Shown: positions 16,043 through 37,192, counted from the first letter of the stretch. The stretch: DNA of 64,000 bases from Rhodospirillales bacterium (GCA_965229715.1 CBDDJL010000001.1:138725-202724); one strand, 5' to 3'. Translations and numbers: made by a program. The notes: generated by a model not told the origin, from the sequence alone.

Positions 16043-16063
16043 AATATTCCTCAAGAGAAAATA
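16043..16063. promoter_or_regulatory. Island operator-like palindrome, site E (AATATTCC-TCAAG-AGAAAATA; weakest copy)
   Basis: Lies in the divergent region between the SDR gene (-) and the flavoenzyme gene (+). Matches the AATTTTCT-N5-AGAAAATT pattern seen at four other divergent promoters. Confidence 0.45.
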
Positions 16064-16152
16064 TGTTTGTGTGAAAAGAGAATTCTGACATATTCATTTT
16101 CTGTGGGCGGAGGGCGAAAGATCGATTGGCGCCTCAATCGCATGGAGATCGA

Positions 16153-18114
16153 ATGCCTCAATCATTTCCAACGCTTTTTTCTCCAATTGATGTCGGCAAC
16201 ATGACCGTCAAGAACCGTGTGTTCCTTCCTGGACACGCGACGCGTCTTGCCGAAGCAGACGGTACTGTCGGTGATCGAATCCTCGCCTACCACAAGGCAA
16301 GAGCGGAAGCCGAAGTCGGAATGATCGTCACCGAGGTGAACTGCGTTCACCCGTCATATCTGCCGCCAAATCGTCTCAGCGTTACCTCGGATGATTGCAT
16401 TCCGGGATTGGCCAGGCTCGCCAACCTGGGGAAGCCCTACGATTGCCGGATCGTGGGGCAACTATTCCATCCCGGACGCGTCGCGGGGTTTTCTGCCGAC
16501 GGGTCGGTGATGGCGACGTTTGCGCCATCGGAAGTCGCGGACGAATTCTACAAGAACATTCCCAATCCACTCACGAACGGCCAGGTCTGGGAGATCATCG
16601 AGGCATTCGGGGATGGCGCACGTCGGATGGCCGAGGCAGGACTTGATGGCGTCGAGCTGCTGTCGAGCATGGGCTACCTGATCTCGCAGTTCCTCAATCC
16701 GCGCCTAAACCTTCGAGCCGACGAGTTCGGCGGCAATCCCGAGAACCGGCTGCGCTTCCTGCGAGAGATTATAGCGAACGTGAGGCAGAAGGCAGGCAAC
16801 GAGATCGTCCTAGGCATCCGCATCTCGGTCGATGAGATGGACGATACGGGGCTCCATCCGGACGAGGCCCTCGAGGCGCTGAAGCTGATCGATCAGGACG
16901 GCAAGATCGACTATGTCAACGTCATCGCGGCGACGACCGCCAGCTATGACGGGTGGATGCACATCGTGCCCCATATGGTGATGCCGAGTGCCTATATTGT
17001 GCCGCAAGCCGCCGCCGTGAAATCTGTCGTTTCGGTTCCTGTCCTCGTGGCGGGCCGCATCAACCAGCCGCAGGATGCCGAGAAGGTCCTGGCGAGCGGC
17101 GAAGCTGACATGACCGGCCTGGTGCGCGCACATATTTGCGACCCGGCCTTCACTAAGAAGGCGAAAGAGGGTCGCACCGACGATATCCGTGCCTGCATCG
17201 CCTGCAACCAGGCCTGTATCGGACACGGGCTGAAGGGATTCTTCACGTCATGTATCCAGCATCCCGAAACCGGCCGCGAGCTTCAGTTCGGACACAAGCA
17301 GAAGACCGAGAATCCGAAGCATGTCCTTGTCATCGGCGGCGGACCGGGCGGCATGAAAGCGGCCGTGACCGCGGCGGAGAGAGGTCATCGGGTAACACTC
17401 TGCGAAAAGGCGAACCGCCTGGGCGGACAAGCACTTCTGGCGCAACTGTTGCCCGACCGCAGCGAGTTCGGGGGCATCATCACCAACCTGGAACACGAGC
17501 TCAAACGCTTCGGCGTCAAGGTGCAGTTGGGCGAGGAGGTGACCTTGGAGAAGGTCACCGAAATGAACCCCGACGCAGTCATCGTTGCAACCGGCGCAGT
17601 TCCGATGCTCCCCGAGGTCGACGGCCTGGATGAACTGCATGTGGTCGACTCCTGGTCCGTCATACGCGGCGAGGCGAACGTCGGATCGTCCGTCGTCATC
17701 TGGGACTGGCGATCGGACTGGGTCGGCCTTGGACTGGCACAGATGCTCGCCCAAAACGGATGCAACGTGCGCCTTGCCGTCAACGGCATCGTTGCCGGGG
17801 AGAGAATCCCAGCAATGGTTCGAGATTACGCCGTCGGCGAACTGCACAAGTTGGGGGTCGAGATCGTTCCGTATGTGCGGCTTTTCGGCGCCGATACCGA
17901 TACCGTCTACTTTCAGCACGTGACAAGCAAACAGCCGGTCATCATGGAGAACGTCGATACGCTGGTGTCTCATCATGCGCCGAGACGAAACGCCGAGCTT
18001 GCGGAGGCGCTGCGCGCTATCGGAATAGAACCAATCGTCATCGGCGACGCTCTCAGTCCGAGAACGGCTGAAGAAGCAGTGCTCGAGGGTCTCAAAGCGG
18101 GTGTTGCAGTATAG
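16153..18114 (+). CDS. OYE-like FMN domain + [4Fe-4S] + FAD/NAD(P) domain oxidoreductase (2,4-dienoyl-CoA reductase / N-methylproline-demethylase-type)
   Basis: MPQSFPTLFSPIDVG...KNRVFLPGH, CIACNQACIGH and VLVIGGGPGGMKAAVTAAERGHRVTLCEKANRLGGQ. ATG 16153 is preceded by GGAG and aligns with the paralogue's start at 37269. Confidence 0.85.
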   Translation: MPQSFPTLFSPIDVGNMTVKNRVFLPGHATRLAEADGTVGDRILAYHKARAEAEVGMIVTEVNCVHPSYLPPNRLSVTSDDCIPGLARLANLGKPYDCRIVGQLFHPGRVAGFSADGSVMATFAPSEVADEFYKNIPNPLTNGQVWEIIEAFGDGARRMAEAGLDGVELLSSMGYLISQFLNPRLNLRADEFGGNPENRLRFLREIIANVRQKAGNEIVLGIRISVDEMDDTGLHPDEALEALKLIDQDGKIDYVNVIAATTASYDGWMHIVPHMVMPSAYIVPQAAAVKSVVSVPVLVAGRINQPQDAEKVLASGEADMTGLVRAHICDPAFTKKAKEGRTDDIRACIACNQACIGHGLKGFFTSCIQHPETGRELQFGHKQKTENPKHVLVIGGGPGGMKAAVTAAERGHRVTLCEKANRLGGQALLAQLLPDRSEFGGIITNLEHELKRFGVKVQLGEEVTLEKVTEMNPDAVIVATGAVPMLPEVDGLDELHVVDSWSVIRGEANVGSSVVIWDWRSDWVGLGLAQMLAQNGCNVRLAVNGIVAGERIPAMVRDYAVGELHKLGVEIVPYVRLFGADTDTVYFQHVTSKQPVIMENVDTLVSHHAPRRNAELAEALRAIGIEPIVIGDALSPRTAEEAVLEGLKAGVAV

Positions 18115-18118
18115 CGGA

Positions 18119-19377
18119 ATGGTTCATCTTTCTGCCACGGACAAGTCCCTTATGGCCGGTGAAAAAGGACCTGCCGCCCAGTTTGCCATGGAGCTATTAT
18201 GCAATTTCGCCGAGGTCGCCGGCGCCAAGTCGTTTGTGGACGTTCGATCCGCCCATATCGGCGCGGCGTGGCTGAGCGGTGAGGCACAGTTCGATTTCGT
18301 CGAACGGATCCGTTCGCTTGGCGGCTGCGTTTCCATCCCGACGATGCTTGCAGCCTCGAAGGTTTGCCTCAGCAGACCCGCGATCAATCAGGATCCCGGA
18401 CTGGCGGCCCGATCCGGCGACGTCGCCAGGATGCTGGTCGAGATAGGATGCCAACCGACCTTTACCTGCACACCCTACTGAATCTGGCGTTCGGAGATTG
18501 TGTCGCACTGACCGAGTCGAGCGCCGTCGTCTATGCGAACTCGGTGCTCGGAGCCCGAAGCAATCAAGGGTACGATTTCCAGGATCTCGCCATCGCGATC
18601 TGTGGCCGGGCACCGTCGATCGGCATGCTCGACGAGGCCAATCGCAAGGCCACCTACGTTCTGGATTTTTCAGGCATACCGAATTCGGTGAAGTCGCAAG
18701 AGCCGTTCTTCCACATCTTTGGACAGTATCTAGGCCGGGAGATCAATGAGGGCGTGCCGGCGCTTGTCGGATTGCCGGCCAACATCACGCCGTTGTCCAT
18801 GCGCGCAATCTGCGCGAGCGCATCAACGGCCGGATCGATCAGGATGTTTCATGTACCCGGCGTAACGCCGGAAGCAAGGACGCTCCGGGACACGTGCGGA
18901 AGCGAAATGCCGCCGAAAGTCGACATTTCCCTCTCCCAGCTCCGGCCCTACCGGAACGCCCTCTCGCCCGTCGGGTCCGATGCAGGCTTGAACGCCGTGT
19001 GTCTGGGCGCACCGCATATCTCGATCGATGAGTTCGCTGTCATGCGTGGTAAAATAGCCGGTCGCAAAGTCCATGCCGGCGTGAAGTGTTCGGTCAGTAC
19101 ATCTCGTACGACCATCAAGGAGCTCCAGACACGTGGCTGGTTTGAGGAAATCGAAAACGCAGGGATCATCGTCGTTCCGGATACATGTACCTATGCGGCG
19201 CTGGTCGATGTCGGTCAGGACGGCGTGGTGATGACGAACTCAGGAAAATGGGCCTACTACGGGCCGATGTGTTACCCTGTGAAAGTGGCGATGGGTACGT
19301 TCGAGGAGTGCATCGAGTCCGCAGTGCAGGGACGTATCACCCGCAATGAGGAGTTCTGGTCCGATGACGGATGGTGA
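18119..19377 (+). pseudogene. Aconitase X (AcnX, DUF521) large subunit, interrupted by a 1-nt frameshift near 18478-18481 (or an assembly error)
   Basis: Frame 1 reads MVHLSATDKSLMAGEKGPAAQFAMELL...GCQPTFTCTPY then TGA at 18479-18481. Family sequence continues without a gap in the next frame (LNLAFGDCVALTESSAVVYANSVLGARSN...). Confidence 0.65.
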
Positions 19378-19789
19378 GCCCAAATCTGGCGCTGCGACAA
19401 CAATCGTTTCGGGGCAGATTGCGCTGTTGACCGAACCCTTGTGCTTTCTCGTCGTCGAACCGAAGACCGGCATCATTGAGGATGTGTTTCATCCGCAGCG
19501 AGGAAGATGCGTTTCGGATACGATCCTGGCGCTTTCTGGGACGAGAGGCGGTGGCGCTACGCCAGGGCAGTTATGTGAACTCCTGAGGCTTGGCGCGGGA
19601 CCACGAGCCATCGTCCTGCCGCACCCTGATCCGGCCGTATCCACGGCCACGTGGGTCGCCAAGAGACTGTACAACATCGAGGTGCCGGTTCTCGTTCTCG
19701 ACAAGGAAGAATATGACAGTCTCGCCGATAGAGAGACCGTATCGCTCGATTGCGTGGAATCACGTCGGATTTCGGTCGCAACCGATTGA
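19364..19789 (+). CDS. Aconitase X small (swivel, DUF126) subunit
   Basis: GQIALLTEPLCFLVVEPKTGIIEDVFHPQRGRCVSDTILALSGTRGGGATPGQLCELLRLGAGPRAIVL. ATG 19364 has GAGGAG 9 nt upstream and overlaps the large-subunit stop. Confidence 0.75.
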   Translation: MTDGEPKSGAATTIVSGQIALLTEPLCFLVVEPKTGIIEDVFHPQRGRCVSDTILALSGTRGGGATPGQLCELLRLGAGPRAIVLPHPDPAVSTATWVAKRLYNIEVPVLVLDKEEYDSLADRETVSLDCVESRRISVATD

Positions 19790-19846
19790 TGCATGGGTCC
19801 GCTCTTCGGTCGAACTTGACCAACCTTCTTCTCTATTACGTTCCGC

Positions 19847-20158
19847 TCAGTCCGTCGCGTCTGAAGGCAGATTGTGGACGGTCAGCTCATATTCCTCCCG
19901 CCGATAGCCAGGTTCGATCAGATGTGACATCCCCGCCATGACTTTCGGCCAACGTTCGCCACTCGCCTCGAATTTTTCTGCATCGGACCAGATCGTTATA
20001 CCGATCGACGATCCGCCCGTGTCATCGAACGCGTCAAGAATGTACATCAGGCCGCTCTCTTCAGGATCATTGGCCAACAGAAAGTTCTTCGCCTCCTGAA
20101 TGAGTTGTTCCTTCGTGCCTGGCTTCAAGGTCAGGTAGTTGATCCGCATATACGCCAT
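19847..20158 (-). CDS. Small hypothetical protein (103 aa), possibly a dimeric alpha/beta-barrel (ABM-like) fold
   Basis: Clean ORF with non-repetitive composition in an otherwise empty slot, positioned divergent from the Rieske genes. The fold assignment is only an impression. Confidence 0.4.
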   Translation of the reverse strand: MAYMRINYLTLKPGTKEQLIQEAKNFLLANDPEESGLMYILDAFDDTGGSSIGITIWSDAEKFEASGERWPKVMAGMSHLIEPGYRREEYELTVHNLPSDATD

Positions 20159-20254: not shown

Positions 20255-20275
20255 AATTTTCTTATAGAGAAAATT
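20255..20275. promoter_or_regulatory. Island operator-like palindrome, site A (AATTTTCT-TATAG-AGAAAATT, perfect 8-bp arms)
   Basis: Lies in the divergent region between 20158(-) and 20356(+). An overlapping second palindrome, TTTCAT-T-ATGAAA, is at 20274-20286. Confidence 0.6.
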
Positions 20276-20355: not shown

Positions 20356-21513
20356 ATGACGAAGAACTACACCGCAGAATTCTTGGGAATCGATATTGAC
20401 GCAGTTGAGCGGCAACTCGCTGAGCACCGCAGCCTTCCAATACACACCTACTACGACCCGTCGGTGTACGAATTCGAACTCGACGCGATATTTCATCGTT
20501 CGTGGCAGTACTTCGATCTCATCGAACGGTTAGCAACACCAGGTGACATCGTCGTTGGAATGGTGGGTCTCATCCCAGTCGCAGTTACGCGAGCAGACGA
20601 TGGTGAACTGCATGGATTCGTCAATATCTGCCGCCATCGGGGTTTCCGCGTCGTAGAGGGAAACAAGCGGAACTGTCGCCTCATGGTCTGCCGCTACCAC
20701 GCTTGGTCGTACAATCTCAAAGGCGAGCTTACTCGCGCACCGGACACTGAATCGGAACCCGGCTTCGATAAATCCGAGTTTGGATTATTGCCGGTTCGCG
20801 TCGACACCTGGGGGCCTGCGGTTTTCGTCAACCCGGATCCTGAGGCGGCGTCGCTTCGCGAGTCTTTCCCACGTATGGACGAATGGACAGAGCGGTTTCA
20901 GTTCATTATGGAACCGGGTCGCTACACTCTGCATCGGGAAATCGTAAAGCCCCAGCAGTCGAACTGGAAGCTTTGGTACGACAACGGAACCGAATGCTAC
21001 CACTGCCCCATCGTCCATGGTGAGAGCTTCGGCGAGGCCTTCAAAGTCAAGGAGGGCGAGTATGAGTTCTTCCTCGATGGGGGCATGACAAGCTATGCGT
21101 TCAAAGCAAGCACAGGTGAGATTGGCAGCAAATCAGGCCACCTCCGGAGTCAAACCTACCGCTCTTTCCAAACCTTTCCGGGGTGCCAGGTCATTCAACA
21201 GGACGATCTAATGATTGTCTCCAAAATGACGCCGACAGGGCCCGATTCTTGCGTCTTCACTTCCCACTATCTGGCTGAAAAAGATGCCGATCCCAAGCGG
21301 GTTGATGAATGGATCGCGATCTGGGATCAGACCTTTACCGAGGACGGCGAGGTCGCCGAGGTTCAACAGATCAACATCCGCTCGGATCGTGCGCCGTTAT
21401 TTCGGTACATCTCTGGACGAGAAGCGCCATCCCAATACATCACAAAGTTGATCTGGGATACCTACAAAGCGGGATTTGATGATCCAGGGCGTGGACGTAC
21501 CGCTGCAGTGTAA
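20356..21513 (+). CDS. Rieske [2Fe-2S] non-haem-iron oxygenase alpha subunit (GbcA/Stc2/CntA-like)
   Basis: Rieske motif CRHRGFRVVEG...CRYHAWSY. Catalytic-domain motif NWKLWYDNGTECYHCPIVHG. Confidence 0.85.
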   Translation: MTKNYTAEFLGIDIDAVERQLAEHRSLPIHTYYDPSVYEFELDAIFHRSWQYFDLIERLATPGDIVVGMVGLIPVAVTRADDGELHGFVNICRHRGFRVVEGNKRNCRLMVCRYHAWSYNLKGELTRAPDTESEPGFDKSEFGLLPVRVDTWGPAVFVNPDPEAASLRESFPRMDEWTERFQFIMEPGRYTLHREIVKPQQSNWKLWYDNGTECYHCPIVHGESFGEAFKVKEGEYEFFLDGGMTSYAFKASTGEIGSKSGHLRSQTYRSFQTFPGCQVIQQDDLMIVSKMTPTGPDSCVFTSHYLAEKDADPKRVDEWIAIWDQTFTEDGEVAEVQQINIRSDRAPLFRYISGREAPSQYITKLIWDTYKAGFDDPGRGRTAAV

Positions 21514-21527
21514 ACGCTGATTTTGGA

Positions 21528-22649
21528 GTGATGCTAACCATGAAGATCGACGCGAAATCGCTTGCCCGGGATATCGACCAATCACTCGGTCTTCCGGCCC
21601 GGTACTATTTCGACCCAGACATTTATCAGTTCGAATTGGAGGCTATCTGGCGAAAGGAATGGCAGTACTTCGCACCGCTCGAAAAGCTAAGAAACCCGGG
21701 TGACGTTGAGGTCGGTCGAGCTGGTGACATCCCCGTGGTCGTTACTCGCACCAGAAACGGTGAGCTTCGCGGCTTCGTCAACGTGTGCAGTCATCGGGGG
21801 TACAGAGTCCAAGAGGCCGGTGGTTCGAATTGTAGGCATCTCGTCTGTCGATACCATGCCTGGACCTATGACTTGGATGGTCGGCTCATTGGCGCTCCGG
21901 GCAGTGAAGACGATCCCTCATTCGACAAGTCGGAACTTGGCCTCCTGCCGATTGCCGTCGAAGAACTGGGGGCAGGCATCTACGTCAATGCCGACCCAGC
22001 AGCGCCGACGCGGCGCGACTCCCTGCCCGGTTGCCTGGAAGCCTACGAAGAGGTCGGCATCGATCTTAATCCGGACCGTTATACCTTGGCCCGCTCGACG
22101 CGGCACGATGTCCCGTCCAACTGGAAGATGTGGTTCGACAATTTCTGTGAGTGCTACCACTGCGACAACATTCACTCGGGCTCATTCTCCGCGGCCTATG
22201 ACTCCAGTATCGACTCCGTCTACACCTCGTTCCGTGACCGCTACATGGTCAATCGCTTTAAGCCGAAGAACTCTCCGAGCGGCACTGATTTGCGTGCCAA
22301 CAATTACCGGTCTTCCGTCAATTTCCCGGGCGGGCTAATCCTGCAACAGGATGATCTGATGATTTTATCGCAGATGCGGCCATTGGGTCCCGAGCGTACC
22401 GAGCAGCAGGTCGACTATTTTGCCGAGGAGGGGGCCGATTCGGCACGGGTCGAGGCGTGGGTCGCGCTCTGGGAACAGACGTTCAGCGAGGACGGAGCGG
22501 CGACTGCAATTCAGCAGGAGGGCTTTCGCACCGGCGCGATTGAACGCAGTCGATTGATGCGCCCGCGCGAGGAAGCCGTGTTTTTCTTCAACAAGACGAC
22601 CTGTCAGGCCTACGAACGACACTTGGCGCAACCGACTGCCGCCGAATAG
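21528..22649 (+). CDS. Rieske [2Fe-2S] non-haem-iron oxygenase alpha subunit, tandem paralogue
   Basis: CSHRGYRVQEAGGSNCRHLVCRYHAWTY and NWKMWFDNFCECYHCDNIHSG. Confidence 0.85.
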   Translation: MMLTMKIDAKSLARDIDQSLGLPARYYFDPDIYQFELEAIWRKEWQYFAPLEKLRNPGDVEVGRAGDIPVVVTRTRNGELRGFVNVCSHRGYRVQEAGGSNCRHLVCRYHAWTYDLDGRLIGAPGSEDDPSFDKSELGLLPIAVEELGAGIYVNADPAAPTRRDSLPGCLEAYEEVGIDLNPDRYTLARSTRHDVPSNWKMWFDNFCECYHCDNIHSGSFSAAYDSSIDSVYTSFRDRYMVNRFKPKNSPSGTDLRANNYRSSVNFPGGLILQQDDLMILSQMRPLGPERTEQQVDYFAEEGADSARVEAWVALWEQTFSEDGAATAIQQEGFRTGAIERSRLMRPREEAVFFFNKTTCQAYERHLAQPTAAE

Positions 22650-22727: not shown

Positions 22728-24341
22728 TCAGCCCTTGAGCCACATGGTTTCTGCCGCCCGCATCCCATCAAACGGTGCGTAGCCGGCGAGATGCTCTTCG
22801 TGACCGACCTTGTCGACAGCCGCGTGAACGAAATTCTGGAACAGCGGGACAATGGTCGATCCGTCATTGTGCAAGATGAGCTGCAGTTCGTGATACATCT
22901 CACGACGCTTTGACGTATCGGTCTCGCTCCGTGCTTCGGCGAGAATCTTGTCGAACCGGTCGTTCTTCCAGTTCGTGTCGCCCCAGGCGGCATCGCCGGC
23001 ATATGCCAACGAGAGGATGAGATCCGGGGTCGGCCGTGCGTTCCAATAACTGTAGCAGAACGGAACCTTCGCCCAGACGTTGGACCAGTACCCATCTGTC
23101 GGCTCACGCTGCACCTTCACATTGATGCCGGCTTTCTTCGTGTTTTCCGCATATAGCTGGGCTGCATCGACACTGCCTGCAAACGCCGCATCCGAGGCAT
23201 GTAGTGTGACATCGACCGAGTCGAGGCCAGCCTGCTTCAGGTGATGCTTCGCCTTGTCCGGGTCGAACGCCCGTTGTGGGATATCGCTGTTATGGAAACG
23301 GTCGAACGATGCGATGGGATGATCATTGCCGAGCGACGCATAGCCGCTGAAAATCTTGTCCCGCAATTCAACGCGATCGATCGCATACTTCATCGCCCGA
23401 CGCACATCGACGTTGTCGAATGGCGCCTTATCGGCATGCATCGGCATGGTGATATTCGATCCGCCCGGCACGTCCAGGATCGAGATGCCGCCAGCTGCAA
23501 CAAAGCGGTCGATGGTTCGAAGCTCGACGTTGTCGATAATGTGAACTTCGCCCGTGCGAATGGCATTCATTCGCGCCGCCGTGTCACGGATCGACAGCAG
23601 TTCAGCGGAATCGACATAGGGTTTGTCACCCTTGTAGTAGTTCTCGTAGCGGCGTCCGACCGCGCGGACACCGGGATCGAACTCTTCGAGAACGAAAGGT
23701 CCGGTGCCGACGCCCGACGTCATGTCCGGCACGCCATCTTTGGAGGGTACGATCGCGAAGAAATACTGCGACAGATAGAACGGGAAATCCGCATTTGGCG
23801 ATGAAAGATCGAACACGACCTTGTCCGAGCCATCGGCCTTGATATCCGTAACGCCGTCCATGAGGGACTTGCCCCCCGAACTGCTGTCTTCGCCCCTGTG
23901 GTAATTGATCGAGTCGATGACGTCCTGCTGCGTCATGGACTTGCCGTTATGAAACTCGACGCCTTGACGAAGCGTAAACGTCCACCTTGTACCGCCGTTC
24001 GAGGCCACCCATTCCGTTGCGAGATCCGCTTCGAGATCGCCGTCAGCACCAACATCGACGAGTTGGTTTCTGAGCATGCCCGTTCGGAACGTGTCGACAT
24101 GGGCATTGCCTACGATCGCGGTGTTCAGCGTATCGCTCGTCTCACCGTGCCCGGCTCCGATGATCAGGTGGCCGCCCTTCTTTGGCGCAGCGTCAGCGGT
24201 TTTCGTCCATACGCTAGATGCCGCGGCAACGCCAATGCCCATTGCCGCCGCGCGTTCCATGAACTGCCGGCGCGTGACTCCCGGCTTTCCTGCATAATTG
24301 CCAAGAACTGACTTGATCTGCGATTGAAACTCCGACTTCAT
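22728..24341 (-). CDS. ABC-transporter substrate-binding protein, family 5 (peptide/opine/nickel type), Tat-type signal
   Basis: Twin-arginine leader VTRRQFMERAAAMGIGVAAASSVWT, then a family-5 SBP-like body (~530 aa). ATG at 24341; the longest ORF opens at TTG 24383. Confidence 0.8.
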   Translation of the reverse strand: MKSEFQSQIKSVLGNYAGKPGVTRRQFMERAAAMGIGVAAASSVWTKTADAAPKKGGHLIIGAGHGETSDTLNTAIVGNAHVDTFRTGMLRNQLVDVGADGDLEADLATEWVASNGGTRWTFTLRQGVEFHNGKSMTQQDVIDSINYHRGEDSSSGGKSLMDGVTDIKADGSDKVVFDLSSPNADFPFYLSQYFFAIVPSKDGVPDMTSGVGTGPFVLEEFDPGVRAVGRRYENYYKGDKPYVDSAELLSIRDTAARMNAIRTGEVHIIDNVELRTIDRFVAAGGISILDVPGGSNITMPMHADKAPFDNVDVRRAMKYAIDRVELRDKIFSGYASLGNDHPIASFDRFHNSDIPQRAFDPDKAKHHLKQAGLDSVDVTLHASDAAFAGSVDAAQLYAENTKKAGINVKVQREPTDGYWSNVWAKVPFCYSYWNARPTPDLILSLAYAGDAAWGDTNWKNDRFDKILAEARSETDTSKRREMYHELQLILHNDGSTIVPLFQNFVHAAVDKVGHEEHLAGYAPFDGMRAAETMWLKG

Positions 24342-24440: not shown

Positions 24441-24485
24441 AATTTTCTTTTTAGGGAAAACACTAATTTTCGTGAGAAGATAAAT
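24441..24485. promoter_or_regulatory. Island operator-like palindromes, site D (AATTTTCT-TTTTA-GGGAAAAC) plus degenerate D2 (AATTTTCG-TGAGA-AGATAAAT)
   Basis: Lie in the divergent region between the SBP gene (-) and the XRE-cupin regulator gene (+). Confidence 0.5.
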
Positions 24486-28249: not shown

Positions 28250-30360
28250 GACGCATTCTCCTTGTCCCAGTCAGCGAAGGACTTGCCTTCGGCTGCAAGC
28301 CGTTCAAGCAGCGGCGCCGGCGTCCAAAAGTCATGGTCCTCGTCGAACGACCTGATCGTCGAAAGCACCTTCTCAAGGCCCACCGTATCGGCATAGTGCA
28401 TCGGTCCGCCCCGCCAGCGCGGGAAGCCATAGCCATTGATGAACACCAAATCGATATCGCTGGCCCGAAGCGCGATGCCCTCGTCCAGGATCTTCGCGCC
28501 TTCGTTGACAAGCGCGTAGATACAGCGCTCGACGATCTGCTCGTCCGTGACGTTACCTGGCACGATGCCGGCGGCCTTTCCCGTTTCATCGACGATCGCT
28601 TGTACATCCGGGTTCACGGTCTTCTTGCCGTCTTCATAGACATAGAAACCCTTGCCGGTCTTCTGACCGTACCAGCCACGCTCACAGATCTCGTCACAGA
28701 CGGTCGAATAGCGTACCTCGGGTTTGCGGAGGTGCGCCGTCGACTTGCGCATCGCCCAGCCGATATCGAGACCTGCGAGATCGCGTACCGAGAACGAGCC
28801 CATGGCCATGCCGAAGTCGTAGAGCGCCTTGTCCACCTGATCGACGGTGGCGCCTTCCTGCAACAGGAAATCCGCCTCACGGTTGTACTGGGAGAACATG
28901 CGATTGCCGATGAAGCCATGGCAGACGCCGGAGACGATCGCCGTCTTGCCCAACCGCTGTCCGAGCTTCAGCCCAGTCACCAGCACGTCGTCGGCTGTCT
29001 TCGCGGCCCTAACCACTTCGAGCAACTTCATGATGTTGGCCGGGCTGAAGAAGTGGAGGCCCAGCACGTCCGTCTCGCGACCGGCAGCGGCGGCGGCGAT
29101 CGCGTCCACATTGAGGTATGACGTATTGGTCGCCAGCACCGCGCCTGGCTTAGCTATCTTCGCCAGATCGGCAAACACGGACTTCTTGACGTCCATGTCC
29201 TCGAAGACGGCCTCGACGATGACATCGGCGTCGCCGGCCGCCTCGAGGTTCAACTCGCCGGATACGAGAGCCGTATGGGCGGCGGCCGTCGCCTCATCCA
29301 TGCGGCCCTTGCTGGCCTGGCCCACATAGGTCGCCGCAACTCGATCGAGGCCGCGCTGCAGCGCCTCGGCGTCGCGTTCGATCATGGTGACGGGGATGCC
29401 CGCGTTCGCAAAGCACATCGCGATCCCCGACCCCATGGTGCCGGCTCCCAGAACCGCTGCCTTGTCCACTGGGCGATCTACGATGTCCGTCGCAATTCCG
29501 GGAACTTTCCTGGCTTGGCGTTCGGCAAAGAAGACGTGGCGAAGCGCAACGGCCTCATCGGCAGTGACGCATTCGAGGAACCTCTTGCGTTCGTAGGCGA
29601 AGCCCTCGTCGAATTCCGTCTTCGTCGCCATCTCCACGCAATCGATGCAGGCAACCGGCGCAGTTTGGCCGCGAAACCGCTTTGCGACACGCGCGCGCTC
29701 AGTATCGAAGACCCGCGGGCCATCCACGGCAACACCACGCTCGCGCGTCCGTTGGTGAATCTGGCCGGAGGCGACCTCCCGGGAAAGATACCTGGCGGCC
29801 TCGGCGATCGGATCGTCCGCGGACACGAGGCCGTCGATCAACCCGATCGAATACCCCTCCTCCACCGAGATCGGCTCGCCCGACAGAATCATTTCGAGTG
29901 CCTTTTCGGCGCCAACCAGGCGAGGCAACCGCTGGGTGCCTCCGGCGCCGGGCGGGATGCCGAGTTTGACCTCGGGCTGACCGACCATCGTCCCCGCCTG
30001 GGCAACGCGGTAGCGGCAGCTCATGGCGATCTCAAGTCCACCGCCGACGGCCGTCTTGCGCAGCAAGATACCGATCGGCTTGTCGTTTGAATCGAGCCTA
30101 TCGATCAGATCGATCAGGTTAGGCTCACCTTCGGGCCACTTTTTACCCTGAACCTTAATGTCGGCGCCCCCCAGCACGCCCGTCCCGCCGGCGGCAATCA
30201 GGATACCCTTTACCGAGTCATTGTCGTTCAACCGGTCGACCGCTTCGATGATGCCGCCGGGCACGCCAATGCTCATGACGTTTACCGGCGGATTCTCGAC
30301 GAGAACCACCGCGACATCGGGGGCGCTATCGGGCTGAAAAACGTTGATTCGAGGGTCCAT
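28246..30360 (-). CDS. Bifunctional enoyl-CoA hydratase / 3-hydroxyacyl-CoA dehydrogenase (FadB/FadJ-like)
   Basis: N-terminal crotonase-like domain, then the NAD-binding motif [28 protein letters not shown]. 704 aa. 4-nt overlap with the thiolase gene. Confidence 0.85.
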
Positions 30361-30429: not shown

Positions 30430-30450
30430 ATTTTTCTTGTAAAGAAAATT
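30430..30450. promoter_or_regulatory. Island operator-like palindrome, site C (ATTTTTCT-TGTAA-AGAAAATT)
   Basis: Lies in the divergent region between the fadB-like gene (-) and the acyl-CoA ligase gene (+). A degenerate second copy follows at ~30451-30471. Confidence 0.55.
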
Positions 30451-30471
30451 ATTTTTCAATAGAAACGAATC

Positions 30472-32163
30472 GTGATGAACCGCTCGACTGCCCCAAATCC
30501 ACGCCCATCGCTGATGATGGATCGGCCCTTGCTTCTGTCGTCGATCCTGACGCACGGTCAGACGGCATTTCCCTATCAGGAGATCGCAGCACGTCGGATG
30601 GACGGGACGGTTGAAAGGACGACATTCGCCGAGTTCGGGCAACGATGCAGACAGGTCGCGGGTGCCCTGAGCCAACAGCTTCGAATTCAACCGGGCGAGT
30701 GTGTCGCCACCTTGGCGTGGAATACGATGGCGCACCTCGAGCTCTACTTCGCGATACCTGGCATCGCGGCGGTCTGCCACACGCTAAATATTCGCTACTC
30801 CGATGAACATCTGGTCTTCATTATCAACAAGGCACGAAATCGCGTCGCCTTTGTCGAGACTGATCAGCTCGATCGACTACTCGGCCTGATCGGCCGGTGC
30901 CCCACCCTGGAGGCGATCGTTGTCCTGAGCGGCGAGGCCCCTGACATGAGCGGTCGGCCTGACATTCTCGGTTACGAGGAATTGGTCGCTGACGCGACGC
31001 CGCTCGATGAATGGCCCGATTTCGACGAACGGTCCGCGTCTTCACTGTGCTACTCGTCCGGATCGACGGGCGATCCGAAGGGAGCATTGTACTCTCACCG
31101 CTCGACAGTCCTCTACACGCTAGCCAGTCTCGCCTCGGGCCAGATGGGAATCGGCGCGGAGGATTGCATTTTGCCTGCCGTTCCGATGTTCCATGTGAAT
31201 GGCTGGTGCAAGGCGCATCAGATCATGGTTGCGGGCGCGAAACTGGTGCTTCCGGGATCACGCATGGCCGGCGAGGATCTGGCGTCGCTGATCGATGATG
31301 AAGCCGTTACCACGGCATTCGGCGTACCGACAATCTGGCTGGCATATTTCGAGTATCTGAAGCGCACAGGCACCCGGCCGAGGACATTGCGGACAATCGG
31401 TTTCGGTGGCGGCACGCCGACGACGGGGCTGCTGCGGAGACTGCGCGACGATTTCGGTATCGACCACCGCTGCGGATTTGGCATGACGGAGACGACAACC
31501 GGCCTGGGCGCCGGATATTTCGGCCCCGACTACGCCGACGCGGATCGTGATCAGCAACTCGGGATTTCGCAGTCGCTGCGTCCCTTCTTCGGTATCGACA
31601 TTCGTATCCGGCAAGACGACGGACATCTCGTCGACAGGGCCAGTGGCAGCCCGGGCGAGATGGAGTGCCGAGGGCATTTTGTCATTCAGGCGTATTTCGA
31701 AGACGACACCGCGACCCAGGGCGCTGTTACCGAAGATGGATGGTTCAAGTCGGGCGATGTTATCTCGTTCGATGAGATGGGCCGGTTCCGGGTCGTCGAC
31801 CGCCTGAAGGACATGATCAAATCCGGTGGCGAATGGATCAGTTCTCAGGCGCTCGAGTCCGCCGCGTCGAACCACACCGATGTGATCGAGGCCGTCGTCA
31901 TCGGCCTGCCTCACCCGAAGTGGCAGGAACGCCCGTTTCTGATCGTTCGGCTGCAGTCCGGCGTGACGTTCGACCAGGCGGGCATTCGCGAGCACATGGC
32001 CACCCGTCTTCCAAAATGGTGGCTGCCGGATGCGATCGAAGTAGTCGATGAACTGCCGCGGGCGTCGACCGGAAAAGTCGATAAGCGCACGCTCAGAAAG
32101 ATGTTTCAGGACTACGCGTTCACGGGGGACGGCACATTGGACCGCCCCCACGCTCCGGAGTGA
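30472..32163 (+). CDS. AMP-dependent acyl-CoA synthetase/ligase
   Basis: AMP-binding motif LCYSSGSTGDPKG, plus C-terminal GEWISS and PRASTGKVDKR. The start is uncertain: GTG 30472, ATG 30475 or ATG 30514 (MMDRPLLLSS). Confidence 0.85.
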   Translation: MMNRSTAPNPRPSLMMDRPLLLSSILTHGQTAFPYQEIAARRMDGTVERTTFAEFGQRCRQVAGALSQQLRIQPGECVATLAWNTMAHLELYFAIPGIAAVCHTLNIRYSDEHLVFIINKARNRVAFVETDQLDRLLGLIGRCPTLEAIVVLSGEAPDMSGRPDILGYEELVADATPLDEWPDFDERSASSLCYSSGSTGDPKGALYSHRSTVLYTLASLASGQMGIGAEDCILPAVPMFHVNGWCKAHQIMVAGAKLVLPGSRMAGEDLASLIDDEAVTTAFGVPTIWLAYFEYLKRTGTRPRTLRTIGFGGGTPTTGLLRRLRDDFGIDHRCGFGMTETTTGLGAGYFGPDYADADRDQQLGISQSLRPFFGIDIRIRQDDGHLVDRASGSPGEMECRGHFVIQAYFEDDTATQGAVTEDGWFKSGDVISFDEMGRFRVVDRLKDMIKSGGEWISSQALESAASNHTDVIEAVVIGLPHPKWQERPFLIVRLQSGVTFDQAGIREHMATRLPKWWLPDAIEVVDELPRASTGKVDKRTLRKMFQDYAFTGDGTLDRPHAPE

Positions 32164-32174: not shown

Positions 32175-33629
32175 TTACGTACCGGCAATTGCCTTAATTT
32201 CAACGTACTCCTCGAGGCCGATCAGGCCACCCTCGCGACCGTTTCCGGACTGCTTGTAGCCGCCAAACGGCGCATCGATGCCCTGGCCGGTGCCGTTGAT
32301 GCCAACCATGCCCGCATCGATCGACATAGCGATCCGTTCGGCTCGTGCCTTGTCGCCCGAGAAGACGTGAGCGGCTAACCCGAACGGCGTGTCGTTCGCA
32401 ATGCTGATGGCGTCTCCTTCATCATCGAAAGGTATGATCGCCAGCACGGGACCGAATATCTCCTCCCGCGCGATCGTCATGTCGTTCGTCACATCGGCGA
32501 AGACCGTGGGCCTGACATAGTACCCCTTGTTGGTTCCCTCCGGACGACCAAGGCCACCCGATACCAGCCGCGCGCCCTCATCAATCCCAATCTGAATGTA
32601 GCCCTGGACGGACTCGAACTGCTGGGCGCTGACAACGGGGCCAATATGGTTGCCGGGTTTGGAGGGGTCGCCGATCTGGATGCTGTCGGCGACCTTCTTC
32701 GCCTTCTCCACCACGGTGTCGTAAACCGAACTCTCGACCAGCATCCGCGTCGGGGCCGTACACGTTTGGCCGGTATTCGACATCACCCGGTTGACGCCCC
32801 AGGTCACCGCGCTGTCCAGATCCGCGTCGGCAAAGATCATGTTCGGCGATTTGCCGCCCAGCTCGAGCGCCACGCGCTTGACGGTGTCCCCGGCCGCACG
32901 CGCCACGTTGGCACCTGCCGCGAGGGAACCGGTCAGCGACACCATGCTCACATCGGGATGGCTTGACAGGTATGCGCCGATCTCACGACCGGGGCCCTGC
33001 ACCAGATTGAAGACGCCGGCCGGATATCCGGCCTTGTTCAGACATTCCGTCAGAATGACCGCATCCAGCGGCGACTCTACGCTCGGTTTCAGAACCATCG
33101 TGCAGCCGACGGCCAGCGCCGGGAACACCTTCTGGGCGATTTGATTGATCGGGTAGTTCCAGGGCGTGATCATCGCGCAGACGCCGATCGGCTGACGCAC
33201 GATTTTCGCCGACTTCTTGCGCGAGTAAGACTCGTCCTCGAACTCCTTAAGCGCCTCGATCGTTTCCTTGATACGCTCCGTGCCGACGTACTTCGTCTGA
33301 ACAGACACCGCGAAATCGATCGGTGAGCCCATCTCCATCGAGATCGCCTCGGCGATTTCGGCTTCGCGCTTTTCAAACTCGCTCAGGAAAGCCTGCAGCA
33401 GTTCGATCCGTTCCTTCTTTGACGTATGGCGGAACGTCTGGAAGGCCCTCTTGGCAGCCTGCACAGCCTTCTCGGCATCCGCAACGGACCCGTTGGCAAC
33501 CGTCGCGCAGCGCTCTTCGGTCGCCGGATTGATCACGTCGAAGGTTGCCGGCGTTTCCGGCGCAACCCATTGGCCATCGATGTATAGCTTGTCGTATTTC
33601 ACTTGAGCTTTCCTCTCAGAGTTCGTCAA
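32175..33629 (-). CDS. NAD(P)+-dependent aldehyde dehydrogenase
   Basis: VALELGGKSP, catalytic Cys region NTGQTCTAPTR, and EEIFGPV. Confidence 0.9.
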   Translation of the reverse strand: MTNSERKAQVKYDKLYIDGQWVAPETPATFDVINPATEERCATVANGSVADAEKAVQAAKRAFQTFRHTSKKERIELLQAFLSEFEKREAEIAEAISMEMGSPIDFAVSVQTKYVGTERIKETIEALKEFEDESYSRKKSAKIVRQPIGVCAMITPWNYPINQIAQKVFPALAVGCTMVLKPSVESPLDAVILTECLNKAGYPAGVFNLVQGPGREIGAYLSSHPDVSMVSLTGSLAAGANVARAAGDTVKRVALELGGKSPNMIFADADLDSAVTWGVNRVMSNTGQTCTAPTRMLVESSVYDTVVEKAKKVADSIQIGDPSKPGNHIGPVVSAQQFESVQGYIQIGIDEGARLVSGGLGRPEGTNKGYYVRPTVFADVTNDMTIAREEIFGPVLAIIPFDDEGDAISIANDTPFGLAAHVFSGDKARAERIAMSIDAGMVGINGTGQGIDAPFGGYKQSGNGREGGLIGLEEYVEIKAIAGT

Positions 33630-33689: not shown

Positions 33690-34004
33690 TCAGCACGTCG
33701 AGCCGCGTATCTTCACGCGCTTTCCCTCGACATCCATTTCGAGGCTCCAACTGGTGGCGACCCGATCGCTCGACGTGTCGGCCAGGAAATCATCGTCCTC
33801 GAAGCGAATCTTGCCGCGGTCGCCGTTGACCAGCGGCGAGAACACCGCCCGTATCGCATCGTGGCCCGAATGTAGGGCGCCGGTGTGATCCTGGAATGTC
33901 GCGTCGGGCGCGAAGCTTTCAACGACGGCGTCGAGATCTTGTCTGTTGAACGCATCGAAGAACTTCCGCGTCAGTTCCCGAAGGTCGGTTTCCCTATCAC
34001 TCAT
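33690..34004 (-). CDS. SnoaL-like / NTF2-fold small protein
   Basis: MSDRETDLRELTRKFFDAFNRQDLDAVVESFAPDATFQD is typical of SnoaL-like proteins. ATG 34004 overlaps the upstream stop by 8 nt. The longer ORF to 34157 lies inside the upstream gene. Confidence 0.65.
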   Translation of the reverse strand: MSDRETDLRELTRKFFDAFNRQDLDAVVESFAPDATFQDHTGALHSGHDAIRAVFSPLVNGDRGKIRFEDDDFLADTSSDRVATSWSLEMDVEGKRVKIRGSTC

Positions 34005-36018
34005 CCTCGCCTCCAAACTCCATTGCCCACCGATGGCCGTCGTGAACCGCCATGGCGATGGGTCCCGGCGCGACGCAGTCACCAATCTTCGAGACCGTGT
34101 CGATGCCTGCGTCGGCAAGTTCCGTCCGCCGGTCCTGCAGTGCGTCGTGAATGCCACTGACCGGGTCCTTCATCGTCACCATGACAACACTCGCGCCTTC
34201 AATGACGCGCGGCGCACCCGTCCAGAGATGGCTGATGTGAACCCCGTCGTCGTCCACGCGCTTCAGGTTGTGCGAGACGACGATTTCGATGCCGAGTTCC
34301 ACCATTCGCCCCATCACATGAGAGAACTCCAGAGTGAACTTGCTGTAGGTGCCGAGATCCGCCGCCGGCGTCACCAGCGTTACATCGCATCCGTCGATCG
34401 CCAGTTTCTCGGCGATCACGCTTCCCATGTAGTAGTGGTCGTCATCGAACACGACAACGGGGCCATCGATCCTTGCGCCATCCATGACATCATCGGCGGT
34501 GTAGACGTTCGAGCGATCCCAGCCCTCCACCGGTTGGTGATATTGGCGCCCCATTCCGTTTCGCCGCCACGTCCCTCCGGTGGCGACAACCACGTTCGGA
34601 ATGCCGAAATCGAGAACCTGATCGGCGTCGAGCTTGCTTTCGAGATAGACGTTCACATTGGCCATCTGGCTGAGTTGATAGGACCGGAAATCACTGACCC
34701 GCCCCCAGTCGGAAAGCCCAGGCAGGGCCGCCTCGCGGGTTACCCGGCCGCCAAGCGCATCCGTGGCCTCCGCGAGCGTCACTTCATACCCGCGCTTGCC
34801 AAGCGTCAGCGCGCACTCCATGCCTGCGGGGCCACCGCCGATGATCAATACGCTGCCGTCGGCGTGGCTTGCAGGCACGGTTTCTGGATGCCAGCCATCC
34901 ACCTCCTTGCCAATCGTCGGGTTTTGCGTGCAACGAATGGGTACGGATAACAGAACGTTCGTCGTGCACATGTTGCAACCGATGCACTCGCGGATGTCCT
35001 CGATCCGGCCCTCTTCGATCTTTCTGGGCAGGAAAGGGTCGGCAATCGACGGGCGCGCCGCGCCGATGAAGTCCAGCCGGCCCTTCTTTATTGCCGAGAC
35101 CATGCGGTCAGGACTGGTGTATCGGCCGACGCCGACCACCGGTTTAGTGGTGACCGATTTCACGAAATCGGTGTATTCGCGCTGGTAGTCTTCCTCGAAG
35201 AACCGCGACAACCCAGAGTCGTTCGACCAGTCGCTGACATTGACGTCCCAGAGGTCCGGCAGTTCGGCCAGCATCTCGACGACCTCACGGCCCTCGCATT
35301 GCCACTCAAGCCCGTTCTTGCCCATCATCTCGTCGACGGCGAAGCGGACCGCGACCGCACACTTGTGGCCGACGGCATCCTTGGTTACCTCTATCATCTC
35401 GCGAAACAAGCGAACCCGGTTTTCGAGCGAACCCCCGTATTCGTCGGTGCGCCGATTGTAGCGCGGCATCAGGAACTGCATCGGCAGCGACAGATCGTGT
35501 GCGCAATAGACATAGACGATATCGACACCCGCCTGCATGGCGCGCCTGGCTGCGTCGGCCTGCCATTTGATGACGTTCCGGATGTCCTCGCGGTCGGCCG
35601 CCTTGGCGACATAGGGACCGTAGCTCCAGTAGTGGGTTTGCGACGGAGCAATGGGGTAGGTCCGGGTCAGCTTGTTCGCCGCGGACTTGCCGGCGTGCGC
35701 CAGTTCAACGCCGAACAAGGCGCCGTGTTCATGGCAGGCGTCAGCGGCCCTGGCGACCAGCGGAATGTCGCCGTCCGTGAAGAGGCGCATGTGAGGTGAG
35801 GACGAATGGTCGGAGGTCTCGTGAATCATACACTCTTCGGTACAGACAACGCTCCAACCGCCCTCGGCCTTCATGGCGCGGTACGCGACCATGTGATCAG
35901 GATAGGTAAACCCCATCCCGGAAGCGTGAGGTGCCTGGTAGAACCGGTTCTTCGCCGTGACCGGTCCGATCTTCACCGGTTCGAAGAGGATCGCATAGGA
36001 ATTGGCGTCATTTGGCAT
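33997..36018 (-). CDS. OYE-like FMN + [4Fe-4S] + FAD/ADP-domain flavoprotein, trimethylamine/histamine-dehydrogenase-like subtype
   Basis: FEPVKIGPVTAKNRFYQAPH, RECIGCNMC and VLIIGGGPAGMECALTLGKRGYEVTLAEATDALGGR. Confidence 0.8.
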   Translation of the reverse strand: MPNDANSYAILFEPVKIGPVTAKNRFYQAPHASGMGFTYPDHMVAYRAMKAEGGWSVVCTEECMIHETSDHSSSPHMRLFTDGDIPLVARAADACHEHGALFGVELAHAGKSAANKLTRTYPIAPSQTHYWSYGPYVAKAADREDIRNVIKWQADAARRAMQAGVDIVYVYCAHDLSLPMQFLMPRYNRRTDEYGGSLENRVRLFREMIEVTKDAVGHKCAVAVRFAVDEMMGKNGLEWQCEGREVVEMLAELPDLWDVNVSDWSNDSGLSRFFEEDYQREYTDFVKSVTTKPVVGVGRYTSPDRMVSAIKKGRLDFIGAARPSIADPFLPRKIEEGRIEDIRECIGCNMCTTNVLLSVPIRCTQNPTIGKEVDGWHPETVPASHADGSVLIIGGGPAGMECALTLGKRGYEVTLAEATDALGGRVTREAALPGLSDWGRVSDFRSYQLSQMANVNVYLESKLDADQVLDFGIPNVVVATGGTWRRNGMGRQYHQPVEGWDRSNVYTADDVMDGARIDGPVVVFDDDHYYMGSVIAEKLAIDGCDVTLVTPAADLGTYSKFTLEFSHVMGRMVELGIEIVVSHNLKRVDDDGVHISHLWTGAPRVIEGASVVMVTMKDPVSGIHDALQDRRTELADAGIDTVSKIGDCVAPGPIAMAVHDGHRWAMEFGGEDE

Positions 36019-36087
36019 GGGAACGACCTGCGTGGAAAATGCTCTTCGTTGCTTCTATCGGTCTATCTCGCGCCAGTTCGAAATGCA

Positions 36088-37158
36088 TCAGTTGCCCCCG
36101 TGCCCATCGGCAAGATCGGGCTTTACGACGACTTGCTGGAACGCGGATAGCCTGCCGGCTGCCGCTGCCAGTGCGGCCTCGATCTCGGCCAGCGCGTAGA
36201 CCTTGCTCTCGATACGATCGACAGGCAGTTGCCCGGATTCAATCAATCTCACAAGCAGCGACGGTGTCGACCGTGGAAACCAGAAAGAGCCGTGAACAGC
36301 GAGATTCTTCGTTACGAGTCCGGCGGCACGGGGCGCCGGGTCCAGGCTCGCGAGAATAACGACGGATCCCCGCGGCCGAAGGCTCGGAATACAGCTCTCG
36401 ACGAGCTCCGGGCCGCCTGCTGCCGCGCAACTCATGACCAGATCGACCGAGGACGCCGGTGGCGGATCGGTCGAAACGACCACACGCGGGTCGACGGCTG
36501 CGAGCGGGGCCAGCTTGGAGGTGCTTCGGCCAAGCGCGAATACTTGGGAAGCGCCCATTGCCAGGGCGAGGAGAACGGCGCCGGAACCCAGCACGCCATT
36601 TGCTCCGGTGACCGCAACCGCCCCGCCAGCTTGAAAGCCGGAACACGTGAAAGCGGAATGGGCTGTCCCAAACCAGCCCAACCGGCAAAGCGTCTCCATC
36701 GACGTCTTCTCAAGCGCCGGCTCGATACTCGTGACGCATTCCGCGGGAAGCCTGACATGAGTGGCCAGGGTTCCATCGGCGTAGCGTGAGAAAATACGCT
36801 GACCTGCTCCGGAAACAGCAAAACACCCGACGAAGGCACTATCGAACCTCTCGCCATTGGCCATGGTGCTAACGTAGGAATCACAGTATACGCGGGTGCC
36901 TACCGACACATTGTGCACGTTCTCGCCAACAGCCTCGACCGTTCCCGTGGCCTCACTGCCTGGGGTGAACGGCCTTGGGGGTGTCTCGAAGCCGCCGGAC
37001 CCGTCGATCAGGGATGAGAGATATGACGTCACCATCGTCGCCTCGACACGAACCAGCAGATCGTCGCTTCCCAGCGTGGGAGGGTCGCAGTCCTCGACGC
37101 TGGGCGAGGCTTGCCCGGGATTGAGACGCATGGCTCTCATCGATGTCATCCTACTCAC
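36088..37158 (-). CDS. Medium-chain (zinc-type/quinone oxidoreductase-like) dehydrogenase/reductase
   Basis: GSEATGTVEAVGENVHNVSVGTRVY and the Rossmann motif VAVTGANGVLGSGAVLLALAMG. Several candidate Met starts lie in the first 10 codons. Confidence 0.75.
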   Translation of the reverse strand: MSRMTSMRAMRLNPGQASPSVEDCDPPTLGSDDLLVRVEATMVTSYLSSLIDGSGGFETPPRPFTPGSEATGTVEAVGENVHNVSVGTRVYCDSYVSTMANGERFDSAFVGCFAVSGAGQRIFSRYADGTLATHVRLPAECVTSIEPALEKTSMETLCRLGWFGTAHSAFTCSGFQAGGAVAVTGANGVLGSGAVLLALAMGASQVFALGRSTSKLAPLAAVDPRVVVSTDPPPASSVDLVMSCAAAGGPELVESCIPSLRPRGSVVILASLDPAPRAAGLVTKNLAVHGSFWFPRSTPSLLVRLIESGQLPVDRIESKVYALAEIEAALAAAAGRLSAFQQVVVKPDLADGHGGN

Positions 37159-37171
37159 GATCCGACAGCAA

Positions 37172-37192
37172 GATTTTCTTCTAGAGAAAAAT
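37172..37192. promoter_or_regulatory. Island operator-like palindrome, site B (GATTTTCT-TCTAG-AGAAAAAT)
   Basis: Lies in the divergent region between the MDR gene (-) and the flavoenzyme gene (+). Confidence 0.55.

Follow-up and report, generated by a model that had tools for sequence, protein, structure and literature searches.

In a 64,000-nucleotide stretch of DNA from a Rhodospirillales bacterium (hereafter the window; 57% GC), we found that a 21-bp palindrome occupies five short gaps between divergently transcribed genes of a catabolic island, all located between 16 and 37 kb. The sites are not a product of chance, lie exclusively in these gaps, are conserved in related loci, and co-occur with the family of a regulator encoded in the island itself, namely a protein with an N-terminal XRE-type helix-turn-helix (HTH) domain and a C-terminal cupin domain (24574-25221, + strand). 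We are highly confident that these are operator sites and that together they define one regulon. We also regard it as probable, with somewhat more reserve, that the five palindromes are the operators of this local XRE-cupin protein acting as an effector-released repressor on a single regulon.

Genes of the window were modeled from open reading frames (ORFs) and Pfam matches, and the gene calls of an earlier first-pass annotation of this DNA stand after the Pfam check. The six site sequences quoted there are likewise all present where they had been placed, and we refer to the five operator regions that they form as O1 to O5. O1 (AATATTCCTCAAGAGAAAATA, 16043-16063) lies in the gap between the genes for a short-chain dehydrogenase/reductase (SDR) and the flavoenzyme OYE1, and the distance from its center is 67 bp to the SDR start and 100 bp to the OYE1 ATG (16153). 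O2 (AATTTTCTTATAGAGAAAATT, 20255-20275) has perfect 8-bp arms and is located between orf103 and a pair of Rieske oxygenase genes, its center being 91 bp from the ATG of the first of these. O3 (24441-24485) consists of two adjoining dyads (24441-24461 and 24465-24485), whose centers are 24 bp apart and the second of which is complete, in the gap between a substrate-binding protein (SBP) gene and the XRE-cupin gene. O4 (30430-30471) comprises the dyad ATTTTTCTTGTAAAGAAAATT (30430-30450) and then a third half-site, ATTTTTC (30451-30457), within a weaker second dyad, between the FadB operon and a CoA-ligase gene. Finally, O5 (GATTTTCTTCTAGAGAAAAAT, 37172-37192) is found between the genes for a medium-chain dehydrogenase/reductase (MDR) and the flavoenzyme OYE3; it starts 14 bp upstream of the MDR ORF start (37158), and its center is 87 bp from the OYE3 ATG.

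The core TTTTCT-N5-AGAAAA has three perfect matches in the window (20257, 30432, and 37174). When up to two mismatches were allowed, seven matches were observed against 1.30 expected, and none of 100 dinucleotide shuffles of the window reached seven. Six of the seven are the sites quoted in the first-pass annotation, and the seventh (42432) was dismissed as noise, with a score of only 5.0 bits under a position weight matrix (PWM). Every intergenic gap of at least 40 bp was scored with a symmetrized 21-bp PWM from which the training site in that gap had been left out. The five divergent gaps, from O1 to O5, scored 20.7, 30.5, 22.3, 28.9, and 27.0 bits, and in 500 composition-preserving shuffles of each gap the observed score was never attained. 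The remaining 20 intergenic gaps of the window gave a maximum of 8.5 bits, a ceiling that also holds for an AT-richer gap of 809 bp (11923-12731) and for the divergent gap at 47936-48351. Given these low scores, that of the AT-richer gap included, and the outcome of the shuffles, AT-richness does not explain the motif.

Our data show that information content, computed from 25 sites pooled from the window and related loci, is highest at TTTC (positions 4-7) and GAAA (positions 15-18), with further preferences for T at position 9, A at position 13, and A or T at the center. What had previously been described as a TnTAG-like core of the spacer is better seen as an inward extension of the dyad through these three positions. 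The arms at 20255 are indeed perfect over 8 bp, as the first reading had it, but the rest are imperfect, with complementarity over the six sites of 5, 8, 4, 5, 7, and 6 out of 8. The statement that the palindrome occupies all five divergent promoters of the island is true for the region of 15-39 kb, but the island as bounded by insertion sequences (IS) has a sixth divergent gap, at 48.3 kb, that lacks the motif. In addition, the 20.2-kb gap counts as divergent only on account of orf103 (19847-20158, - strand).

To assess the footprint beyond the window, a PWM built from the window sites alone was used; with this matrix, the two O3 dyads score 25.8 and 21.4 bits. Nine loci with a regulator ortholog and genomic context were available (L001 and L008-L015), in which the regulator is 55-77% identical to that of the window. 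In seven of the nine (eight of ten when the window is counted), the regulator gene is arranged tail-to-tail with an operon of acyl-CoA dehydrogenase (ACAD), in some cases an OYE gene, thiolase, and FadB, which is itself divergent from a CoA-ligase gene. All eight loci that have this FadB-operon/ligase gap, again counting the window, carry a PWM site in it, with scores of 32.0 (window), 28.7 (L008), 27.6 (L015), 24.9 (L013), 22.7 (L010), 20.9 (L012), 17.1 (L001), and 14.8 bits (L009). A near-identical TTTCTTGTAAAGAAA is present in this gap in L008, L009, L010, L012, L013, and L015, and a variant of it in L001.

The motif recurs at orthologous promoters in eight other loci with a regulator ortholog, and operators are kept gene by gene, also in loci with another gene order. 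In L001, sites precede the orthologs of the MDR gene (2878), the Rieske pair (a double site, 3548/3569), the SBP gene (20016, 30.9 bits), and the ligase gene, and the MDR site lies ~14 bp from the start, as it does in the window. Sites were also identified upstream of the SDR orthologs of L010 (20308) and L012 (17156), of the SBP orthologs of L011 (12867) and L015 (9888), and of an MDR-like gene in L012 (20096), together with a double site upstream of the OYE3 ortholog in L011. The TTTC/GAAA positions are retained across genomes of 53-68% GC.

As control DNA, we analyzed 80 loci of ligase paralogs (at most 42% identity), i.e., 1,002 kb of metagenomic sequence that has no regulator homolog and some of which has a GC content of 38-40%. 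No site of at least 20 bits was found in it (maximum, 19.7 bits), as against eight such sites in the ~191 kb of regulator-bearing loci outside the window. The genome-wide enrichment scan that had been suggested for this motif was carried out on the 64-kb window of the host and ~1.2 Mb of other DNA, and on that scale the sites of the window were confined to the five gaps. Collectively, the presence of the motif at orthologous promoters in eight other loci with a regulator ortholog and its absence from 1 Mb of regulator-free control DNA bear out the earlier proposal that these functionally mixed genes form one regulon.

Only two regulator genes are found within the IS-bounded island, namely the XRE-cupin gene and an IclR gene (49769-50644). 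The XRE-cupin protein (215 amino acids) matches Pfam HTH_3 at 6.6e-11 (residues 47-97 of a 227-aa ORF) and Cupin_2 at 4.7e-10. Its AlphaFold2 (AF2) model, with a mean predicted local distance difference test (pLDDT) of 79, has five helices at residues 27-89 and an all-beta C-terminal half with a pLDDT of ~90. The best fold match in the PDB is 1Y9Q, the crystal structure of a Vibrio cholerae HTH_3-family regulator, to which it is similar over both domains (Foldseek E value of 1.4e-10, 200 aligned columns); the global TM-score is only 0.33-0.39, since the orientation of the domains differs or is poorly predicted. In a PDB sequence search, the HTH region aligns to DdrO and SinR (E value of ~1e-7), which share the HTH but have no cupin and work by other control mechanisms, and no NCBIfam model matches the regulator at a threshold of 1e-10. 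Orthologs of the regulator form a group with 54-85% identity, the next relatives being at most 45% identical, and their recognition helix, SxSNLSKIE, is invariant. The predicted sites are local, in that all lie within 13 kb of the regulator gene and none occurs elsewhere in the window. O3 is directly upstream of this gene, and the operon predicted to be controlled from O4 ends 8 bp from the regulator stop codon, with the ACAD gene and the regulator gene tail-to-tail.

A search of genome contigs with the regulator gave two useful relatives, L001 and L002; the distant XRE proteins of L003-L007 were used as negative controls. The nearest paralogs of the regulator, 43-46% identical, are those of Primorskyibacter flagellatus (L002), Rhizobium sp. 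DKSPLA3 (P0034; L096), and a Rhodoferax metagenome-assembled genome (P0117; L097). All three adjoin genes of the N-methylglutamate pathway type (GATase_6/7, GXGXG, Glu_synthase, and Gln-synt_C), so that their neighbors are mgsABC/gmaS-like, in contrast to the beta-oxidation, Rieske, and OYE genes of the window. In L002, AATTTTCTTTTCAGGAATATT followed by TTTTTCC (10652-10690) is located beside the regulator gene and scores 28.2 bits, for which 0.05 occurrences are expected in this locus of 68% GC. In L096, GTTCTTCTTTAAGAGAAACAA and then ATTTTCT are found upstream of the regulator (5664-5700), and a second site lies ahead of the first pathway gene (6580-6610); L097 has only a weak site of 11.3 bits (5969-6009). 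Next to the regulator genes of L002 and L096, a dyad is accompanied by a third half-site, as it is at operators of the window. In the recognition helix, the paralogs differ from the orthologs at two positions, with GM in place of SN, which fits the related but non-identical motifs. Since a related motif goes with these paralogs although their gene neighborhoods are unrelated, it is the regulator, and not the set of targets, that the motif tracks. Judging from these sequences, the regulator genes of L002, L096, and L097 point to an undescribed regulator of methylamine utilization that would use a motif of the TTTCT-N5-AGAAA type. The first-pass annotation had named the XRE-cupin protein as the best candidate for the cognate regulator, and our comparison sustains this choice: the motif follows its orthologs and its distant paralogs, whereas the IclR protein has no counterpart in those loci.

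The half-site centers are ~11 bp apart, a spacing expected of an HTH dimer that occupies a single face of the helix. A third half-site, TTTT[C/A] within 10 nt beyond one dyad edge, was found in 13 of 22 independent operators (0.93 expected; 0 of 2000 shuffles reached 13), and it falls ~21 bp from the first half-site. In the ligase gap of seven loci, the operator center is 70-93 bp upstream of the conserved Met-Met of the ligase and 20-268 bp from the opposite gene (the distances for L001 and L010 were derived by hand). In some cases, the operator is much closer to a gene, i.e., 14-24 bp from the start codon of MDR (window and L001) or FadB (L008). Scans of the five gaps with the sigma-70 consensus returned 0-1 matches and were uninformative.

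We propose that the island's own XRE-cupin factor binds as a dimer, in which one HTH_3 recognition helix (SxSNLSKIE) would contact TTTC(T) and the other (A)GAAA, half-sites whose centers are one helical turn apart. The third half-site or weaker second dyad, ~21-24 bp along and hence two helical turns away on the same face, would allow a second dimer to bind cooperatively, which suggests two cooperating dimers at many of the operators. As each operator lies in a short divergent gap, it could control transcription in both directions, and the five operators would join as many as nine or ten transcription units in a single regulon (SDR; OYE1 and AcnX; orf103; the Rieske pair; SBP; possibly the regulator; FadB-thiolase-ACAD; CoA ligase; MDR and OYE2; and OYE3). 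Repression would be exerted by promoter occlusion and relieved when the pathway substrate or an intermediate binds to the cupin domain. Where an operator is only 14-24 bp away from a start codon, the protein, once bound, would obstruct initiation or the first steps of elongation. We infer here that the protein binds these sites and does so cooperatively, and likewise the sign of its action and the release by an effector; for the sign, effector-released repression is the most likely mode by analogy with the XRE-cupin factors of Pseudomonas (PMC7901475).

Several observations weigh against this proposal. The regulator is present in the comparative loci by construction, because these were retrieved through it, and a metagenome search by ligase alignment, intended to remove this selection bias, returned only paralogs, as the patterns were too generic. 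L014, whose regulator ortholog is 60% identical, has no site in the DNA examined, and the sites in L009 and L097 are weak. Further sites, or a closer paralog of the regulator, may also exist elsewhere in the host genome, beyond the 64 kb scanned. In a search of sequencing runs, the locus was found in DNA-type runs only, and no RNA run covers it. In addition, autoregulation is not conserved. A site upstream of the regulator gene was found only in the window and, weakly, in L015, two loci in which one divergent gap serves both the regulator gene and the SBP gene; in the other eight ortholog loci, no site of at least 9 bits lies within 350 bp upstream of the regulator gene (8.5 bits at best in L001, and nothing of at least 6 bits in the remaining seven). 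Because such sites occur only where the gap is shared with the SBP gene, O3 looks like primarily an SBP operator. The two sites at 24.4 kb from which autoregulation had originally been deduced are therefore real, but their lack of conservation among the ortholog loci leaves autoregulation weakly supported by the sequence comparison.

A further point to be weighed is the sign of regulation. The XRE-cupin protein could be an activator or a dual regulator that binds upstream of the -35 element of ligase-type promoters, and the fairly constant distance between operator and ligase start in seven loci agrees with this, given that with a short 5' untranslated region the operator could be upstream of the core promoter. 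However, every characterized XRE-cupin transcription factor in PMC7901475 is an inhibitor, operators within two dozen base pairs of a start codon misfit activation of that gene, and the third half-site runs towards the ligase gene, i.e., into the likely core promoter. We consider activation unlikely, although it deserves to be kept in mind. There is only a slim chance, in our estimate, that the palindrome is bound by another factor while the XRE-cupin protein controls something else. The binder might be the IclR protein or an HTH_3-M78 protein (59036-60196), or its gene might lie beyond the window, and the selection of the comparative loci via the XRE-cupin gene as well as the lack of a detectable site in L014 leave room for such a factor. 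Yet an IclR homolog is found in none of 12 related motif-bearing loci, the IclR gene adjoins a gap with a different repeat (CCATAWTATGG), and the HTH_3-M78 gene lies outside the IS-bounded island. Moreover, the motif family recurs beside distant XRE-cupin paralogs in an unrelated pathway, which is hard to explain by an unlinked factor, and the one other XRE-cupin protein in these loci, encoded in L011 and L012, is of a different subfamily and absent from the window.

Very improbable, as we see it, is the possibility that the palindromes are generic AT-rich promoter features (UP elements, -10-like boxes, or nucleoid-protein sites), RNA or DNA hairpins, or chance occurrences. The sites are indeed AT-rich and situated in promoter regions, one sigma-70-like match overlaps O4, and the O3 double site can fold into a hairpin of -14.8 kcal/mol. 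Generic promoter features are nevertheless ruled out by the intergenic control, in that neither the other gaps of the window nor the shuffles reach the observed scores, and by the retention of the TTTC/GAAA positions across genomes of different GC content. The O3 hairpin is an automatic outcome of two adjacent palindromes, whereas single dyads fold weakly, with energies between -2.7 and -4.9 kcal/mol that for four out of five are no better than those of shuffles. Terminators were rejected on account of the location of the sites in divergent promoters and not at gene ends, and a scan of the window at Rfam gathering thresholds gave no matches.

The second XRE-cupin gene just mentioned, at 18720-19343 (- strand) in L011 and 19444-20070 (+ strand) in L012, is unrelated to the regulator described here and is divergent from a Rieske oxygenase gene whose promoter lacks the motif. 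It was rejected as the true binder, as its product shares only the HTH with the window regulator and has a different recognition helix. In these two genomes, the Rieske module may have come under this different XRE-cupin regulator instead.

XRE-cupin transcription factors of Pseudomonas are local inhibitors that bind as dimers to palindromes in intergenic regions adjoining their own genes; most members have one or two targets, PauR with 12 locations being the exception, and PsdR controls the family-5 SBP gene dppA3 (PMC7901475). The window regulator is like them in its N-terminal XRE HTH and C-terminal cupin, in its palindromic (here predicted) operators, one of which adjoins its own gene, and in targeting neighboring uptake and catabolic genes as a transferable "local functional unit"; as for PsdR, a family-5 SBP gene is among its putative targets. 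It differs from them in its low sequence similarity, in a large predicted regulon of five operator regions and ~17 genes, and in its host, which is probably a marine alphaproteobacterium. The TTTC(T)-N5..7-(A)GAAA operator with a third half-site was not found in the XRE-cupin literature searched. PuuR of E. coli is another HTH-cupin repressor, which responds to putrescine, is released from the puu genes by this effector, and has more than one palindromic site between divergent catabolic promoters, with its own gene within the cluster. The operator sequence and the effector of PuuR differ from those of the window system, and none of our searches retrieved it.

A local XRE-cupin regulator with palindromic operators is of a known kind and represents no new principle. 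In the literature that we searched, we found no description of the regulator subfamily, of its motif, of a predicted regulon of this unusual size, or of the pathway, and searches for XRE-cupin regulators in connection with the N-methylglutamate pathway, Roseobacter, or the gene set of the island returned nothing relevant. The motif defines, at the sequence level, which genes of a mixed island act together, which is a first step towards the substrate of a catabolic pathway that recurs in marine metagenomes. The predicted operator and the candidate regulator may also constitute an inducible promoter or biosensor pair, for a subfamily with no characterized member, and the regulators beside N-methylglutamate-pathway genes are suggested to follow the same DNA grammar. 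More tentatively, and with doubts outweighing our confidence, we postulate that an undescribed XRE-cupin subfamily, widespread among marine and soil Proteobacteria, shares this operator grammar, in which a dimer of dimers would recognize a TTTC(T)-N5..7-(A)GAAA dyad together with a third half-site two turns off. The N-methylglutamate (methylamine) pathway would be controlled by one branch of the subfamily, and the other would control a mobile, IS-flanked island of ~17 genes that degrades a carboxylate, possibly N-methylated, which is abundant in the sea. Degradation would involve the GbcA-like Rieske oxygenases, three FadH/OYE-type Fe-S flavoenzymes, an AcnX dehydratase, the CoA ligase, and the beta-oxidation set, and the abundance of the carboxylate would keep the module in many Rhodobacterales-like genomes. 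If this is true, the operator could serve as a genomic marker to delimit the pathway and to identify the inducer.

The genes predicted to be controlled from the five operators are as follows. Those of O1 are the SDR dehydrogenase gene (15213-15986, - strand) and, in the other direction, a unit (16153-19789, + strand) of OYE1, a FadH/OYE-type Fe-S flavoenzyme (16153-18114), and the AcnX large and small subunits (18101-19789). Two overlapping ORFs (18101-18481 and 18364-19377, + strand), which cover Pfam AcnX positions 2-122 and 129-400, respectively, make up the AcnX large-subunit gene. This predicted member of the regulon thus seems to carry a frameshift near 18.4 kb, which would reflect either a pseudogene or a sequencing error. 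For O2, the predicted target unit encodes two GbcA-like Rieske oxygenase alpha subunits (20356-22649, + strand), and orf103, which encodes a conserved hypothetical protein of 103 amino acids, is a possible target on the other side. The latter has no Pfam match, but a homolog with 46% identity is called in L009 (1259-1582), where it adjoins the SDR ortholog, and we regard orf103 as a conserved hypothetical gene of the island. The predicted target of O3 is the family-5 periplasmic SBP gene (22728-24341, - strand).

From O4, the beta-oxidation operon encoding FadB, thiolase, and a 600-aa ACAD (25230-30360, - strand) and the gene for an AMP-forming acyl-CoA ligase of DmdB/medium-chain-like type (30472-32163, + strand) are predicted to be controlled, and the true start of the ligase is probably the conserved Met-Met at 30514. 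O5 would control the genes for the MDR alcohol dehydrogenase and OYE2 (33997-37158, - strand) and, divergently, OYE3, an OYE-type flavoenzyme (37269-39227, + strand). An aldehyde dehydrogenase gene downstream of the MDR/OYE2 unit (32175-33629, - strand) may be co-transcribed with it, though a site-free gap of 367 bp intervenes. No enzyme of the island attains an NCBIfam equivalog cutoff; by name, the Rieske proteins come closest to GbcA (far below the cutoff), the ligase to the DmdB type, and the flavoenzymes to the FadH/BaiCD type.

The catabolic island (35.5 kb, 15.2-50.7 kb) is bracketed by two inverted copies of an IS of ~1.7 kb in a composite-transposon-like arrangement. The left copy (13443-15162, + strand) and the right copy (50708-52427, - strand) are 99% identical, each encodes a DDE transposase of 480 amino acids with DDE_Tnp_1_6 and DUF772 domains (IS1182/IS5-like), and a third copy is found at 62.5 kb (62540-64000, - strand). 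No flanking direct repeat indicative of a target-site duplication is evident around the island, and the exact ends of the IS are unclear because the outermost ~20 bp of the copies differ. A megablast search of the region 19.8-25.3 kb against the PLSDB plasmids returned no match and gave no evidence for a known plasmid.

The second half of the island (40955-47935), which lacks the motif, encodes an amidase, a second family-5 SBP, an M24 creatinase/prolidase-like peptidase, a DAO-type FAD oxidase, and a Pyr_redox_2/sarcosine-oxidase-A3 protein, and it appears to be a distinct module for the catabolism of amines or amides that is controlled differently. The divergent Pyr_redox/PrpD gap at 48.3 kb carries a different repeat, as had already been noticed: the 11-bp near-palindrome CCATAWTATGG occurs twice (48312-48325 and 48345-48358), 33 bp apart, with the PrpD start codon (48352) overlapped by the second of the two. 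This pair is a candidate operator for the IclR gene two genes downstream.

Mobile-element debris abounds in the flanks of the window. On the left, a DDE transposase fragment (510-1073, + strand) and a 207-aa integrase fragment (12732-13355, - strand) were identified, and on the right, an IS1-like transposase fragment (60599-61483, + strand) is followed by a histidine kinase gene (61508-62515, + strand) that is truncated by the third IS copy. The gene for the HTH_3-Peptidase_M78 (ImmA/IrrE-like) protein considered above is on the - strand of this right flank, and it, like the histidine kinase gene, is outside the IS-bounded island. In addition, 39642-39713 and 57836-57907 form a 72-nt inverted repeat with 92% complementarity, whose arms are 18 kb apart; one arm is at the end of an EamA transporter gene, and the repeat may be a remnant of another mobile element.

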